From IMG/VR virus record IMGVR_UViG_3300028888_000044, positions 32,001 through 96,000 of that record: a DNA stretch of 64,000 nucleotides; one strand, 5' to 3'. The position numbers and the translations under genes were made by a program. The notes beneath the pieces are model-generated. The model did no database searches, was not told the DNA's origin, and saw only the letters and a program-made list of their open reading frames with translations. The stretch comes from a virus (lineage: Duplodnaviria > Heunggongvirae > Uroviricota > Caudoviricetes). Shown here piece by piece: positions 43,296-49,478 of the stretch. How positions within the stretch are numbered: the first letter of the stretch is position 1; each line of letters opens with the position of its first letter.

Positions 43296-44391
43296 AAAGG
43301 TTATTGAAAGAGTAAAACAAGAATTGGCAAAGATAACCGACAAGGGAAACAAGATTATGTTTTTTGTGATTGACACAAAGGGTAATCCAAGTGGAAGCTT
43401 GTCATATATCTATAAGCTTGCCAAGTATGCAAAAGATGACGGTTACGATGTTGCAATGCTTTATCAGAAATCTAAAGATGAGGATTTCGTTGGTGTTGGT
43501 GAGTGGCTTGGTCAAGAATATGCTGATTTGGAGCATATCTGTATTTCTGATGGAGAATTGAGTGTTTCACCTAGCGACATTCTGTTTATTCCAGAAATTT
43601 TCGCAAATGTAATGGTTCAGACAAAGAACCTTCCTTGCAAGAGGATTGCAATCTTGCAGAACTATGATTATATGGTTGAACAGATGCCTTTCTCTGTACA
43701 GTGGGGGGATTTGGGTATTATGGAATGTATTACAAATACTGAATACAACAAGGAGAAGATTAATGGTGTATTCCCATATGTAAGGACAACAGTTATTCAA
43801 CCAAATGTTGACAATATGTTTGATGCAAAGAGCGTTGGTGACACACCAAGGAATTTTGTTGTTAATGTAATTGCAAAGAGTCAATCAGACATCAACAAGA
43901 TTGTAAAGCCATTCTATTGGAAGTTCCCTATGTACAGATGGGTTTCTTTCAAGGATTTGAGAGGAATGCCTAAGGAAACATATGCAAAGGAGCTGTTGAA
44001 CGGTGAGATAACTGTTTGGGTTGATACTGATTCGAGCTTTGGATATGGAGGTATTGAGGCAATTAAGGCTGGAAATATTGTTCTTGCTAAGAGAACTGAT
44101 AATCAAATGCCTTGGTATTCTGTAAATGGAGAGCCAAATGATGCTTGCATATGGTTTGAGGATTATGACGATTTGCACAAGATGCTTGCTAGTGTTATTA
44201 GAGCTGTGATAACAGATGATGTACCAGAAAAGGTATTTGAGGATAGGAAAGCATATGAAGATTTGTACAATGAGCAAACAACAAGAAAGGAATTTGTTGA
44301 ATATTTAAATAACACAATCGAAAGACGCAGAAAGGAAATCGAGGGTCTTTTGGCTGAAATTAACAATGGAGGTGGCAGCAATGAGAAATGA
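43285..44391 (+). CDS. GT-B glycosyltransferase-like protein
   Basis: LFIPE, AILQN, VWVDTDSSFGYGGIEAIKAG. Confidence 0.7.
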   Translation: METEKVIERVKQELAKITDKGNKIMFFVIDTKGNPSGSLSYIYKLAKYAKDDGYDVAMLYQKSKDEDFVGVGEWLGQEYADLEHICISDGELSVSPSDILFIPEIFANVMVQTKNLPCKRIAILQNYDYMVEQMPFSVQWGDLGIMECITNTEYNKEKINGVFPYVRTTVIQPNVDNMFDAKSVGDTPRNFVVNVIAKSQSDINKIVKPFYWKFPMYRWVSFKDLRGMPKETYAKELLNGEITVWVDTDSSFGYGGIEAIKAGNIVLAKRTDNQMPWYSVNGEPNDACIWFEDYDDLHKMLASVIRAVITDDVPEKVFEDRKAYEDLYNEQTTRKEFVEYLNNTIERRRKEIEGLLAEINNGGGSNEK

Positions 44392-44863
44392 AATTAAAAC
44401 AACAGAAAGTAGAATTGAATATGTGATGACACATAATTTTGATGACATCAAGGTCAGTAGATATATGAACGATATTAGAAAATATTGGGGTAATTGCTTC
44501 TTCTTTAATGTTGATGACGAGAGAAAAGACAATGCATGCATTGCTTGTGACCAGATAGCTTCATTCTTTATCTGTGGCTATGAAGTGTATGGCAATGTTG
44601 TCAAGGACGAGCTTCACAAGCTGATTGACACCAAGTTCAAAGGTTTGTTTACTTTTGAGGAAATTATATTGTTAATGGTTGTGTTTATATATGAGAGGCT
44701 TCCTTTGTCAGATTATGATTTTCGTGAAATCTTGAGTAATTATGCGAAGATTGACTTTAATTATGAAGAGGTTAAGCAAGTATATAATTCTGATAGTCCA
44801 CTTATAGAGTTCTGTATTATTGCTTCTTATAAACTAATTAATAAAATAACAAGAGGAATATGA
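44381..44863 (+). CDS. hypothetical protein
   Basis: Start at MRNEIK, overlapping the upstream gene end. Confidence 0.6.
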   Translation: MRNEIKTTESRIEYVMTHNFDDIKVSRYMNDIRKYWGNCFFFNVDDERKDNACIACDQIASFFICGYEVYGNVVKDELHKLIDTKFKGLFTFEEIILLMVVFIYERLPLSDYDFREILSNYAKIDFNYEEVKQVYNSDSPLIEFCIIASYKLINKITRGI

Positions 44864-45627
44864 TTGATTTGACAATAATTATACCAGTTCACGAATATAA
44901 TGAAGATGTTAAGCAATTGCTTTCAAAGGCTTTGAACAGTGTGAAAGAAGATTATAAAGTTATAATTTCAACAAGTGAAGCCGCCAATGAAGGAATCTTG
45001 CAAGACTTCAACAGAAAAGAATATACCATTCTCAAGTCTGAAGAGACATCTTTTTGCGGTTTGGTAAATGAAGCTGTTAAAAATGTTGATACAAAATGGT
45101 TCAGTATTTTGGAGTTTGATGATATATATTATAGACCTTGGTTCGATAATGTTGAAAAGTATATCAAATTCAACCCAGAAGTTAGCATCTTTATGTGCTT
45201 GACTGATTTGTATGATTACAAGGACAACAAATTTATCGGCTACGGAAATGAGGCTGTTTGGGCATCAAGTTTCTCTAACGAGTTGGGTTATGTAGATTAC
45301 GATTGTTTGCAGAACTTTTTTGACTTTTATATGACTGGTTCTGTATTCAACAAGGAAGATTGGGATTCTGTTGGTGGACTTAAGAAGTCTATTGAGCTTA
45401 CATTTTGGTACGAGTTCCTATTGAGGGTTACACACAACAACAAGAAGGTGTTTGTAATTCCAAGAGTTGGATATGCGCATTATATGAATAGAGACAATTC
45501 ACTTATCAAGAAATATGCCGATACAATGGACGATAAGGAAACGAAGGGATGGTTGAACATTGCAAAGCAAGAGCATTTCTTCAAGAACGACAGAAACAAG
45601 GTATACGATAAAAATGAAGGGGATTGA
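44860..45627 (+). CDS. GT2-family glycosyltransferase
   Basis: LTIIIPVH, ALNSV, ILEFDD, WDSVGG. Confidence 0.8.
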   Translation: MIDLTIIIPVHEYNEDVKQLLSKALNSVKEDYKVIISTSEAANEGILQDFNRKEYTILKSEETSFCGLVNEAVKNVDTKWFSILEFDDIYYRPWFDNVEKYIKFNPEVSIFMCLTDLYDYKDNKFIGYGNEAVWASSFSNELGYVDYDCLQNFFDFYMTGSVFNKEDWDSVGGLKKSIELTFWYEFLLRVTHNNKKVFVIPRVGYAHYMNRDNSLIKKYADTMDDKETKGWLNIAKQEHFFKNDRNKVYDKNEGD

Positions 45628-45647
45628 TAATTCAATCCTCTTCTTGT

Positions 45648-45760
45648 TCATAATACACGTGAGATTTTCCGTTAGTGAAAATGGTGAAGGAAAGTACATT
45701 GTAACTATGTAGCATTATTATGACTTGAAAATAACAGTTATAAAAATTATCATAATAATG
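45648..45760 (+). promoter_or_regulatory. riboswitch-like structured leader of the late sigma factor
   Basis: Three-stem junction with complementary loops; alternative 11-bp helix over the AUG. Confidence 0.55.
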
Positions 45761-46480
45761 GGAAAAAGAGGTAGAAAACCTTCAAAAGATAAAAAGGGAT
45801 ATTTCTTGGATGAGCAAGAAGAAGCCGTAGTCAGATATATTAATTCAACTGACCAAAACGAGAGAAACGAGATATATAAGACGATATTGCATCCAGCATT
45901 TTGCAAAATGGTTGAATCTATAATGAACAGATATAAGCTATATGTACCAGATGAAGAATTTTTGGATACTTTTGACGATACAATATCGTTCTTGATGACA
46001 AAAATAGAATTATTTAATCCAAACAGTGGATACAAAGCATATTCTTATTGTGGAACAATATGCAAAAACTACTTGATACTTAAGATAAAGAATTATGCAA
46101 AGGGTATCAAGAGATATGAACCTTATGAAAATTATCAATCAAAGATTGAGGATAATATAACATTGTCTTATAAGGACAACGATTCATCAACATCTTTCTT
46201 CAACGAACTTATTACAAACACTTCGAGTGGCATAACGGAAGTTATGAGCAAAAACAAGAAACTTAACGAGAACGAGATAAAGGTAGGTAATGCACTTTTG
46301 TCATTATTGGCGAATTGGGAGGATTTGGCTGACAGTATGTGCAGCAATAAGTTCAATAAAAGCTCTATACTTCTTTTTCTTAAAGAAAATACACAGTTGA
46401 CTACAAAGGATATAAGAGTTGCCATGAAAAAATACAAGGCAGTTTATTTTTCAGTCAAAAAAAAGTTGTTGGGTGATTAA
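45758..46480 (+). CDS. late-transcription sigma factor (T4 gp55-like)
   Basis: Start at MGKRGRKP; YF..EQEEAV..Y, FNPNSGYKAYSYCGTICKNYLI region-2-like motif. Confidence 0.65.
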   Translation: MGKRGRKPSKDKKGYFLDEQEEAVVRYINSTDQNERNEIYKTILHPAFCKMVESIMNRYKLYVPDEEFLDTFDDTISFLMTKIELFNPNSGYKAYSYCGTICKNYLILKIKNYAKGIKRYEPYENYQSKIEDNITLSYKDNDSSTSFFNELITNTSSGITEVMSKNKKLNENEIKVGNALLSLLANWEDLADSMCSNKFNKSSILLFLKENTQLTTKDIRVAMKKYKAVYFSVKKKLLGD

Positions 46481-46649
46481 CTGTTAACACATATTCTAAT
46501 AAAAAATAGGTAGCCGTACTACCGAATTGACGCTTGTGGAGAAACCAACTGCGGATGACCGAACATTATGCTCCTAAAAAGCAGTGTTTCGTTGAAGCAA
46601 GAAATAAAATGTAGTAGAATCATAGATTTTATTATAATTTTATATACGG
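46481..46649 (+). mobile_element. non-autonomous TnpB-element right-end / omega-RNA-like remnant
   Basis: Translates to TnpB-type C-tail IGSRTTELTLVEKPTADDR...LKSSVSLKQE; no nuclease or transposase; ends tatacgg. Confidence 0.65.
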
Positions 46650-46680
46650 TGAGTATTTATAAACAAATATATTCTTTAAT

Positions 46681-47064
46681 ATGGCAAGGAAATTGAAAAT
46701 TGAAATCAATTCGATAGAAAACCTAAGGGAACTTTTGCAAGAAACATATAATCTTGCAGATGAGCAACTTATATTGGCTCAAAATGAAATAAACAAGCTT
46801 GCAAACTCTACCAAACTTCAAGAAGAGGTTATGGAATACAAGGCTAAGTATGCCAAGGCTATCAATGACTATATGGGCATCAAGGACAAGGCGATTTCAA
46901 AGAAGATAGAGATTGCCAAGTTACTTGCAGAACTTTGCAAGAATTTGAGTGATGTAAAGGAAATGGATACCTCATTCGCATCTTTTGACTTGGACAACAT
47001 TAGGGAGCTGTTAGACAAGGAGACAAAGGAAAATAACACTGAATATATAAAGCTTAACAAGTAA
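46681..47064 (+). CDS. hypothetical coiled-coil protein
   Basis: TATTTATA at 46654. Confidence 0.75.
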   Translation: MARKLKIEINSIENLRELLQETYNLADEQLILAQNEINKLANSTKLQEEVMEYKAKYAKAINDYMGIKDKAISKKIEIAKLLAELCKNLSDVKEMDTSFASFDLDNIRELLDKETKENNTEYIKLNK

Positions 47065-49478
47065 TGAGATTGGCAGATGCAAACAAGAGGAAACAACTGA
47101 CCACAGTCAGAAGACAACAGAACGAACTGCTATCTACTTTGGACGGTTATCTTACGGCACTTGAGAATCAGTCGGCTGAACAGACGCAAACATTTGCGTT
47201 TGGAGATAATCCTTTTGTGTATTTGATTCAATTGTTGGAGCATCTTGGTTGTACAAGGGAGGAAATGATTGAGAAGATTGCCAAGATAATCATTTATGGT
47301 CTTCCAGCAATAGAAATCGGTGTAAAGGGTATATTGCTGTCAAATATGAAGAATCTTGTTGCTTGTGCCGTAGACCCAAGAATCCCTAATTATGCTAGGG
47401 AAAAGGGCATGACCTACAATATAAAGGAAATAGACCCATTGGGAATATTGTCAACATCTCCATTGGACAAGTACAATCAGCTTTACTTCGGAACTGACAA
47501 TATGAAAACACCATATGACTTTGTTAGACCAGTTGATATGAACACATTCTTGTGGTTTGTTGTACATAAAGGCAAGTATCCTAATTCGTCAGTTATAGCC
47601 GTAGACGAGGATTATAGCGACTTCTTCAAAAGAAAATATGGAGCAAGAACAGTTAGCGGTTCAAATATCAACACAGTGTCATATTTGACTTTTGACCCTA
47701 ACGGCAAGAATCAAGGTATGGCATTGGGTAGCACTTTCATACAGAGGTTTACAAACGAGGAAGGTACAAACGGACACTTGATAAGTCTATGCACAAATGT
47801 CAAGTTCATTATAAAGGAGAAACAAGGACTTAACGATTATTATGTTGCAGAAAGCACTATAATGCCTATAGGAAATGCTTGGGACAGAACTAATTACTAT
47901 GTAAATAGAGGTATGTATCTTTCAAACCTTGGAAAGGTGTTTGATAAAAAAAATGAAAATAATAGAGATTACAACAAGGACATTGGATTGTGCAGTTTCC
48001 AATTCTTGGATTCCTTGAAGAACTATGATGCTTATAATGTCAGCGACTTCAACGAACCATATAACTGCTTGAATGTAAGGGTACTTCCAAAGCCATTGGT
48101 ACATGTTCCACATATTGGACAGACATTCTTCTATCCTCTTATTATCAGATACAACAGCGAAGGTAAGGTTGATAAGGATGGAAGATTTTCTGTGATGCCA
48201 GTGAGGGAAATGCCTACAGATACAATGTGTCATACAAATGTAAAAACAATTATCATCGAGAAATTGTTTGAAAAACTTGGAAGACAACCAACGCAAGAGG
48301 AACAAGATGAGGTTTATTTTACATTGAATGACAAGAACAATGATTCAAAGTCGGATTTCTTTTCAATGGACGGAGCCATTTGGTGGTACAAGCTTGCTTT
48401 CTTTGAGACACAACGCACAGCCACTAATTACAAGTTGGTTATTGACCATAAGGGCAACTACAAGATAACAAGTGATGACTTAAATGTATTTACAAGATAT
48501 AATTTTGATGAAATCACAGAAGTTAACTATAGTACAACACTTTCATTGATAAGGGAATGTTATTTCGGTCTAACCCTTTATGAGTTCAATTATGACTATA
48601 TAATGAGCCAAAGGCTGTTTGATTCAAAGGTTGTTGCTACACAATTGATAAATGTTTTGGCTGATTTTATGATTGGTGGCTCAATAACGTTCTCACAGAC
48701 AGAGATTGAGGGAATGGATAGGATATACCATATTGTTGAGAAGATAGTCAATTCAGACGGTTATGAGGCTAGTGACTGTTTCTATACATTCTCCAATGAT
48801 GAGGTTGAAAGGATGTCAAGGGATGCCGAGCTTAAAAGGGCGAGACTTACACCATTCGGTGACTGTGAAAGAAGGGTTGATACCAATACAGATGAGGTTA
48901 TTGAGGCTTTGAATGACTTTGGCAGCGCAACAGAATTCCAAGAACAGAGGGATGCTTTTTCTCGTGTCGTAAGAAACGTTAGTGCTGTCATTGATAGGGA
49001 AGCAAAAGACCCAGATGTTATTGATAGTGTATCGTTTGACTTCATAACAAATATGTTTCAAAGTCTTTCAGTAGTTATTGTTACTGCATTGCTTTCTCCA
49101 AAAGTACTTCTTATGATATTGATGAATCAAGAGCTGTGTGGAAATTATTCACATGAAAGTTGGAAGAAGATGACATTGGAAAACATATTATATGCAATGC
49201 ATTCAATGATTGCGGCAATAATACTTGAGATTAGAGACCTACTGCTTAAGGAACTGCTTGAAGAGGTCAGAAACAGAATCAAGGCATTACTTTTTGACTT
49301 GCAAGTTGGTCTTATAAGGGAACAGATTGAAGTATATAGAAGAGCAATCAAGCTTATGATTAAGGCATGTTCGTTCAAGGGTGGAAGCAACTTGGATTTG
49401 GATACGGTACTTGACAAGGTTGATTATGCAGACATTGACGAATTGCAGCATCAAACTAATGAAACAAGCAAATGCTAA
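47064..49478 (+). CDS. large hypothetical (probably structural) protein
   Basis: 804 aa, in the late operon leading to the spike gene. Confidence 0.75.
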   Translation: MRLADANKRKQLTTVRRQQNELLSTLDGYLTALENQSAEQTQTFAFGDNPFVYLIQLLEHLGCTREEMIEKIAKIIIYGLPAIEIGVKGILLSNMKNLVACAVDPRIPNYAREKGMTYNIKEIDPLGILSTSPLDKYNQLYFGTDNMKTPYDFVRPVDMNTFLWFVVHKGKYPNSSVIAVDEDYSDFFKRKYGARTVSGSNINTVSYLTFDPNGKNQGMALGSTFIQRFTNEEGTNGHLISLCTNVKFIIKEKQGLNDYYVAESTIMPIGNAWDRTNYYVNRGMYLSNLGKVFDKKNENNRDYNKDIGLCSFQFLDSLKNYDAYNVSDFNEPYNCLNVRVLPKPLVHVPHIGQTFFYPLIIRYNSEGKVDKDGRFSVMPVREMPTDTMCHTNVKTIIIEKLFEKLGRQPTQEEQDEVYFTLNDKNNDSKSDFFSMDGAIWWYKLAFFETQRTATNYKLVIDHKGNYKITSDDLNVFTRYNFDEITEVNYSTTLSLIRECYFGLTLYEFNYDYIMSQRLFDSKVVATQLINVLADFMIGGSITFSQTEIEGMDRIYHIVEKIVNSDGYEASDCFYTFSNDEVERMSRDAELKRARLTPFGDCERRVDTNTDEVIEALNDFGSATEFQEQRDAFSRVVRNVSAVIDREAKDPDVIDSVSFDFITNMFQSLSVVIVTALLSPKVLLMILMNQELCGNYSHESWKKMTLENILYAMHSMIAAIILEIRDLLLKELLEEVRNRIKALLFDLQVGLIREQIEVYRRAIKLMIKACSFKGGSNLDLDTVLDKVDYADIDELQHQTNETSKC

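Follow-up and report, generated by a model that had tools for sequence, protein, structure and literature searches.

A 64,000-nucleotide stretch of a giant phage genome (hereafter the window) carries, at 45641-45729, one copy of a conserved three-stem RNA that is restricted to a clade of phages and belongs to no Rfam family. The window comprises positions 32001-96000 of the 387,538-bp virus record IMGVR_UViG_3300028888_000044, which is rated complete by CheckV. In every relative that carries it, the element, which measures about 85 bases and is Y-shaped, is flanked by a terminator-like hairpin upstream and a sigma-factor-like gene downstream. We propose that it is a cis-acting leader that gates translation of the sigma-like gene through mutually exclusive folds, a reading whose chances we judge to be evenly balanced.

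A conserved three-way junction

A first-pass annotation of the window, made from its letters without database searches, had described three stems (P1, P2 and P3), a CAC/GUG extension of P2 (P2a), the junction, the loops, a 12-bp upstream hairpin and an 11-bp complement to the start region. All the bases given for these parts were verified at their coordinates, and the parts of the junction and its alternative helix are as follows.

45641..45729, + strand: whole match to R1, a covariance model that excludes the window, with a score of 38.9 bits and E values of 6.7e-6 to 3.2e-6
45648..45655, + strand: 5' strand of P1, tcataata, pairing with tattatga at 45716-23
45656..45658, + strand: 5' strand of P2a, CAC, pairing with GUG at 45684-86
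45664..45669, + strand: 5' strand of P2, attttc, pairing with gaaaat at 45677-82 around the loop cgttagt
45687..45694, + strand: purine-only junction J2/3, AAGGAAAG, the best conserved unpaired part
45695..45711, + strand: P3 hairpin, tacat/tgtaact/atgta, with its arms at 45695-99 and 45707-11
45713..45723, + strand: J3/1 and the 3' strand of P1 (P1'), cattattatga, forming the 5' arm of the alternative helix
45750..45760, + strand: tcataataATG, the 3' arm of the alternative helix, which includes the start codon

The relatives share the same order of parts, namely P1 (CAUCAAA..GGCAA), CACG-RAGA, the P2 hairpin, GUG-AAAGAAAG-U, the P3 hairpin, GAUUU and P1' (UUGCC UUUGAUG). Most of the 59 distinct sequences have AAAGAAAG or AAGGAAAG as J2/3, and the divergent members show variants, for example TTAGGAAG. 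P2 carries a near-invariant CACG/GUG extension with a 3-nucleotide bulge. The arrangement of covarying, variable stems around near-invariant unpaired junction bases is aptamer-like. In one locus (L263, 149-217; model match E 0.026), P1, J2/3 and P3 are apparently kept and the P2 hairpin is missing.

Covariation and folding strand

The first-pass annotation had named covariation in the leaders of homologous sigma genes as a check, and P1-P3 proved to be conserved and covarying in these leaders. They also stand above chance by the match of a model that had not seen the window. When 17 relatives, the window not included, were aligned plainly with MAFFT, RNAalifold gave P1, P2 and P3 together with the CACG/UGUG extension of P2. 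Mixing divergent groups in a MAFFT alignment gave a poor result, and model-guided alignments were used instead. These were fitted to the covariance model, which favours the structure, and showed 92.9% of cells paired and compensatory changes in 16 of 24 pairs for 26 distinct sequences. For the 59 distinct leaders, aligned in the same manner, 94.1% of cells were paired, as compared to 38-60% when the 3' partners were slid, compensatory changes were seen in 19 of 24 pairs, and none of 500 shuffles reached any of the five measures. Three results that are free of the model-fitting bias agree with one another. These are the MAFFT/RNAalifold prediction, a fresh RNAalifold run on the 59-sequence alignment, which recovered inner P1, P2a, P2 and P3 with compensatory changes at 14 of 18 pairs, and single-sequence folds, in which, for 19 of 26 relatives, half or more of the consensus pairs are part of the minimum free energy (MFE) structure.

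The stems contribute differently to this result. Changes on both sides were observed at all nine modelled pairs of P1, and all six pairs of P2 displayed compensatory changes. P3 showed compensatory changes at four of five pairs, with 98% of cells paired and with frequent U-G wobbles, on the + strand only. The C-G, A-U and C-G pairs of P2a were kept in 58, 56 (plus two G-U) and 58 of the 59 distinct sequences, and since the CACG/GUG extension is nearly invariant, covariation is no test of P2a. Wobble pairs (U-G or G-U) were found at pairs 82/110 (30/59) and 27/63 (40/59); these would be C-A mismatches on the opposite strand, which indicates that it is the + strand that folds, as RNA. At the level of structure, the element is thus characterized by three stems, a purine-rich junction that is nearly invariant, a single copy per genome, a fixed position and folding of the + strand.

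Distribution and specificity

Model R1 is a covariance model built from 17 relatives with the window excluded. In the 387,538-bp genome, 45641-45729 was the sole significant copy, and the next best match had an E value of 3.1. A protein-guided scan with the sigma-like protein identified 65 IMG/VR loci with 39-59% identity, many of them on contigs of 200-412 kb, and 80 metagenome loci, one of which is a 99% twin of the window (L211) and the others at most 63% identical. R1 matched (E <0.01) 35 of the 65 viral loci and 54 of the 80 metagenome loci that encode the protein. A second model added one locus and a few borderline ones (L022/L026-type, L263 and L265, E 0.03-0.13), with L265 representing a G+C-rich variant in which P2 is GCCGG/CCGGC. 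In the more distant homologues, the spacer is short or the genes overlap, and the element is lacking. By eye, the leaders of L033/L037/L040 and L048 resemble three-way junctions with other junction sequences; neither model detects them and they were left uncounted.

Pattern searches pointed to the same phages. A loose core pattern gave about 18,000 stretches and was uninformative, so that a tighter pattern was substituted. The tight pattern occurred in 20 stretches in IMG/VR, of which 16 were in contigs already found via the protein and the other four failed the model. Among prokaryote genomes (one for each of 185,579 species), none of the 90 pattern matches fitted the model. The element was thus found in phage and metagenome contigs only; its carriers, related giant phages, number in the dozens and come from gut samples, those of ruminants among them. 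A search of Rfam 15 (4227 families) with Infernal, by cmscan of 44000-47500 at E <=10 and of the whole window at gathering score, gave no match on the element, which places it outside the known families. Such an element is undescribed in the literature at the level of listings and abstracts.

A sigma-factor-like gene downstream of the element

The gene that follows the element encodes a protein for which three weak lines of evidence agree.

45758..46480, + strand: sigma-factor-like gene, 240 amino acids, with weak but concordant profile and fold matches

The start codon ATG at 45758 is correct, as the N-terminal MGKRGRK aligns with MAKRGRK, MGRRGRK and similar sequences in the relatives. Profile TIGR02937 (sigma-70/ECF superfamily) was matched at E <=1 by 21 of 22 family members, with a best E value of 1.7e-7, and the protein from the window scored 16.9 bits against a curated cut-off of 42.9. 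The top profile match in PDB was the T4 late sigma factor gp55 (7d7c_F; E 0.05, residues 20-133). An AlphaFold2 model (predicted local distance difference test, pLDDT, 78.4; predicted template modelling score, pTM, 0.45) is all-helical with two blocks or domains, and the Foldseek matches ranked 1-14 were all sigma factors, each under the significance threshold (best E 0.037). No Pfam or PHROG match was obtained for the 240-residue protein. From the profile searches and the predicted fold, a sigma-like identity is a reasonable assignment. Of the name late sigma factor used in the first-pass annotation, we retain sigma-like, on the basis of matches that are weak, concordant and all under thresholds.

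A cultured Flavobacterium phage, vB_FspM_immuto_3-5A (L381, 78130-78828), encodes a 29%-identical homologue that carries the annotation hypothetical. As this gene and the one upstream overlap, there is no leader, and the phage provides no cultured model for the element.

Alternative pairing with the start region

In the window, an 11-bp complementarity links the strand cattattatga (45713-23) to tcataataATG (45750-60), and the resulting helix would cover the AUG. The MFE structure of the window (-23.9 kcal/mol) combines this anti-AUG helix, whose pair probabilities are 0.50-0.69, with a long hairpin between the P2 5' strand and J2/3. The long hairpin was rejected as a conserved feature of the family, as J2/3 stays constant while P2 changes. 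The anti-AUG complementarity exists in the window itself, and its exact form is limited to the window and the 99% twin, so that covariation cannot test it. Its significance is borderline, with an 11-bp run reached by 5% of control windows from the same gene and p = 0.04 against shuffles.

A different helix occurs in the largest subclade, where the sigma-like protein has an N-terminal extension, MSEICVTEE. Here a 12-bp complementarity exists between coding positions +7 to +18 (AAAUUUGCGUAA) and the 3' strand of P3 (P3') together with J3/1 (UUACGCAGAUUU). Across 15 main-group leaders, this P3'/coding-start helix was 92.8% paired, as compared to 23-58% when slid, and compensatory changes were present at three pairs. 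The pairing was reached by 0 of 500 shuffles and the compensatory count by 45 of 500. In an alignment read by eye, the leaders of L020 and L030 showed about four differences in 190 aligned nucleotides. Two of these lie in this helix as a compensatory pair, A to G matched by U to C, which costs the protein a Val-to-Ala substitution. The L008-type leaders keep 10-11 of the 12 helix pairs despite a quite different peptide.

For the family as a whole, counts of contiguous runs against control windows replaced a test of RNAduplex energies against shuffles. At least nine contiguous pairs were found in the P3'/coding-start region in 19 of 51 distinct leader/start combinations, where control windows reached a maximum of 7-10. 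When any part of the junction was compared with -20 to +25, the longest run exceeded that of at least 95% of the control windows in 26 of 59 combinations. The positives include independent lineages with other sequences, namely the window, L035, L217, L266, L003, L279 and L222. In L035, ACGCAGAUUUU is complementary to the bases immediately 5' of the AUG, and in L217 a 13-bp complementarity extends into the AUG. These results give moderate support to the hypothesis that the start region is occluded by competing folds, the platform varying from lineage to lineage.

Loop-loop contact

The first-pass annotation had likened the element to purine riboswitches by its kissing loops and its architecture, and neither part of the comparison held. 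The complementary bases GUUA (45671-74) and UAAC (45702-05) are present in the window and are not conserved across the family. Four or more complementary loop bases were found in 20 of 59 distinct sequences, as compared to 13.7 for non-cognate loop pairs, and in those 20 the complementarity was mostly due to self-complementary AAUU. The observed mean loop complementarity was 2.53, a value reached by 8.4% of permutations. Loop complementarity does beat that of shuffled loops (0/500), because the relatives share loop sequence. Many P2 loops are only 1-2 nucleotides long in the alignment. For an architecture of the purine-riboswitch kind there is no support beyond the bare three stems, and no covariance-model match to RF00167 was obtained in 44000-47500 (E <=10) or in the window (gathering score). 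On these sequence comparisons we reject both the kissing loops and a kinship with purine riboswitches.

The upstream hairpin and promoter-like boxes

The element is preceded by a hairpin (P0) that overlaps the stop codon of the upstream gene.

45616..45643, + strand: P0, a terminator-like 12-bp hairpin with a 4-nucleotide loop, overlapping the upstream stop codon and followed by cttgttc

The 12-bp hairpin of the first-pass annotation was found in its place and scored as terminator-like in a consensus scan; P0 resembles an intrinsic terminator in its sequence, with 12 pairs, five of them G-C, and the T-rich tail TTGTTCATAA. The tail in relatives is ...GCCATTTTTTT. A strong hairpin is present 4-10 nucleotides 5' of P1 in all 57 distinct leaders, and the hairpin of the main group, which reads ...GCCAUUUUUUU, covaries. 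Position 45629, in the loop of P0, is the only place where the leader of the window differs from that of its 99% twin and from an RNA-library contig (A to G). No terminator-like site was found 3' of the junction in the window by the consensus scan.

Throughout the phage genome, the box TATTTAT(A) is sevenfold enriched in the 80-nucleotide upstream regions (77 observed, 11 expected). Of its 106 occurrences, 51 are located 20-39 nucleotides before an ATG, often right after a hairpin and a T run, for example at 46654-46660 in the window. The box is probably a phage promoter element and is the reverse complement of TATAAATA. The main-group phages have the same box 12-24 nucleotides before the next gene. 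The sigma leader of the window lacks the TATTTAT(A) box and contains a sigma-70-type consensus match, TTGAAA-17-TATCAT (10/12), at 45725-53.

In the main group (41 of 57 leaders), GAUAUUUAG follows P1' and an inverted copy, UAAAUAUC, precedes the AUG, the two flanking a small covarying hairpin. In L007 (2404-2461), and at the same place in the 41 leaders, the inverted pair is invariant (GATATTTAG ... TAAATATC), and the hairpin within it is G+C-rich and covarying (GGGAT/TCCC, GGGGC/CCCC, GGAGA/TCTCT). Each inverted arm is a promoter-like box on its own strand. The arms may form an RNA helix, serve as a promoter, or both.

A proposed mechanism and its alternatives

According to the leader hypothesis, the folded junction would leave the start region free for ribosome initiation (ON). 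When the junction is unfolded, a 3' strand of the junction would pair with the start region and initiation would be blocked (OFF). The blocking strand would be J3/1 and P1' (45713-23) in the window, pairing with 45750-60 including the AUG, and P3' and J3/1 in the largest subclade, pairing with coding +7 to +18. We speculate that the junction is stabilized by a trans-acting factor that recognizes CACG-RAGA and GUG-AARGAAAG-U, a phage or host protein being somewhat likelier than a small molecule. Messages that carry the junction would arise from the upstream operon by read-through of the upstream hairpin.

RNA library X1 contains a 337-nucleotide contig that spans 45539-45875 of the window, and a 1796-nucleotide contig that covers the upstream gene of L220, the hairpin, the junction and 160 nucleotides of coding sequence with zero mismatches. 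These contigs, which bridge the junction and the coding sequence, fit with read-through of the hairpin. In library X2, contigs end at 45582 and start at 45730 with none spanning the element; the depth is 4-5, and the gap is thus no evidence for a start at 45730. Libraries X2 and X5 contained nothing on L220.

Several observations weigh against a leader that gates translation. All loci are syntenic, so that a position before the sigma gene is not independent of a position after the upstream gene. Because a terminator-like hairpin precedes P1, the junction is reached solely by read-through or from an unseen promoter. The RNA-library contigs show neither strand nor ends, and DNA carry-over is possible. 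In 41 of 57 leaders, the window not being one of them, the interval from the junction to the ATG holds a copy of the promoter-like box TATTTA[TG], and messages that start at this box would lack the junction. In the window, the forced junction has a free energy of -13.3 kcal/mol, as compared to -23.9 for the MFE structure, and the pair probability of P1 is close to zero. For 33 of 59 combinations (the L016 group, L017, L042, L275 and others), no significant pairing with the start region is seen, and many of the 26 positives are close relatives and hence not independent. The pairing is also heterogeneous, involving P1', P3', J2/3 or the P2 5' strand depending on the lineage. Duplex energies of 23 leaders were mostly unremarkable when compared to shuffles (p 0.00-0.76), and these weak per-sequence RNAduplex values arise because large loops are allowed. 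The translational ON-switch of the first-pass annotation is accordingly kept in part: in several independent lineages, part of the junction is able to pair with the start region, with compensatory changes in the largest subclade, and about half of the leaders are without significant pairing.

One alternative is a metabolite or signal riboswitch, in which a small molecule binds to the junction, stabilizes P1-P3, frees the start codon and thereby times the synthesis of the sigma factor. The near-invariant unpaired bases enclosed by covarying stems do resemble an aptamer, competing start-region helices exist, and the junction in the window is not the MFE structure and would need extra stabilization. 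The bases of riboswitches that contact the ligand are usually invariant, whereas the junction bases vary here in divergent members (TTAGGAAG, ATATGCAAG, TAGGAAAG). Furthermore, none of the 4227 Rfam families matched even at E <=10, the tertiary loop-loop contact is not conserved, and the element occurs in a single phage clade, beside a single regulatory gene, so that no metabolic gene is at hand that would hint at a ligand. We consider a riboswitch of this type unlikely. Its most specific form is a new riboswitch class of giant gut and rumen phages, in which the junction senses a host metabolite or a signalling nucleotide and releases translation of the phage sigma factor. This is quite unlikely; if true, the phage would use RNA to sense the state of the host cell directly and would set the timing of its transcriptional programme by it.

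It is similarly improbable that the element is a structured RNA that does not switch, such as the 3' end or a processing or stability element of the upstream operon transcript, or a separate intergenic small RNA. The compensatory changes tie P3' to the downstream coding start, and the gap of 4-10 nucleotides between P0 and P1 is too small for a promoter. The lack of a terminator-like site 3' of the junction in the window, and the continuation of the RNA-library contigs into the coding sequence, are also at odds with such an RNA. What speaks for it is the location of the element immediately after a terminator-like hairpin, the promoter-like box between the element and the ATG in 41 of 57 leaders, and the half of the leaders that lack significant start-region pairing.

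It is highly unlikely that the element acts at the DNA level, for instance as an origin, as a packaging signal, or as an inverted-repeat site that serves as an operator or lies upstream of a promoter. Such a role is favoured by its single copy, by its location 5' of promoter-like boxes in the main group and, in the window, by the sigma-70-type match at 45725-53. Against it, each of the three separate stems covaries as its sequence drifts, only the + strand tolerates wobble pairs, and the loops are variable; inverted repeats bound by a protein would keep sequence rather than pairing.

Genome and locus context

The phage genome has a G+C content of 34%, reads well with the standard code and contains 393 simple open reading frames (ORFs) with 88% coverage. 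A co-directional run of + strand ORFs ends with an ORF of 255 amino acids, which is followed by a gap of 130 nucleotides and then by the 240-residue ORF from ATG 45758.

44860..45627, + strand: upstream ORF, 255 amino acids, with weak glycosyltransferase-2 similarity (PF00535, E 1.8e-4, under the family cut-off)

In all 65 viral loci, an ORF of similar size lies upstream and ends 40-260 nucleotides before the sigma-like gene. The same ORF is found at the metagenome loci, and the synteny is common to all relatives. Searches of six neighbouring proteins against Pfam and PHROGs gave nothing beyond two sub-threshold Pfam matches, and a tRNA/tmRNA scan of the whole window gave none. In a DNA search of a phage collection, the sole match was 100 nucleotides to Prevotella phage Lak-C1; this match lies outside the element, and the phage of the window is thus not shown to be a Lak phage.

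The Lak-C1 match (78% identity over 100 nucleotides) falls within a G+C-richer stretch of about 170 nucleotides at 46478-46647, 3' of the sigma-like gene. This stretch is missing from the 99% twin L211, where the end of the gene joins 46648-46680 directly. In RNA library X1 it is covered at a depth of 57-128, as compared to 2-5 for the adjacent genes, and it has no Rfam match and no tRNA match. It is a candidate for a small, inserted and expressed RNA element.

Significance and comparison with known systems

The giant phages that infect Bacteroidota-type hosts of the gut have, to our knowledge, not been cultured, and next to nothing is known of how they regulate their genes. A conserved RNA before a sigma-like gene provides a concrete handle on the scheduling of transcription in these phages. 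Binding of a small molecule to the junction would make the element a new class of riboswitch whose target, a transcription factor of a virus, is unusual, and binding of a protein would make it a new translational operator of phages. Either way, biochemical tests can proceed directly from the covariance model and the 59 distinct sequences, with no need to culture the phages.

The downstream protein is most similar to T4 gp55 and the ECF-type sigma factors, gp55 being its best PDB profile match and TIGR02937 being shared by nearly all family members (21/22). It differs in that every match is under the curated or significance thresholds.

The translational ON adenine riboswitch of the add type is a three-way junction closed by P1. 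The phage element resembles this purine riboswitch (RF00167) in its P1-closed junction of P1, P2 and P3, and in that the 3' strand of P1 in the window can alternatively pair with the start region, the two folds being mutually exclusive. It differs from the purine riboswitch in that it has no conserved contact between loops L2 and L3, and its junction is unrelated, with the purine-only AARGAAAG and CACG-RAGA. Further differences are the invariant CACG/GUG extension of P2 with its 3-nucleotide bulge, and an alternative pairing strand that varies by lineage. The core of the hammerhead ribozyme consists of CUGANGA, GAAA and a cleavage-site triplet. The junction strands of the phage element are CACG-RAGA, GUG-AARGAAAG-U and GAUUU, and no Rfam match to any ribozyme was obtained.

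Phages also possess translational operators that are bound by proteins, such as the T4 gene 32 leader, the gene 43 operator and the RegA sites. These are hairpins or pseudoknots, whereas the element described here is a three-way junction, and the gene that it precedes is sigma-like. Like these operators, the element would be a structure in a phage mRNA leader beside a start codon, setting the level of a regulatory or replication protein. The restriction of the element to one phage clade fits with a protein partner that co-evolves with the RNA.

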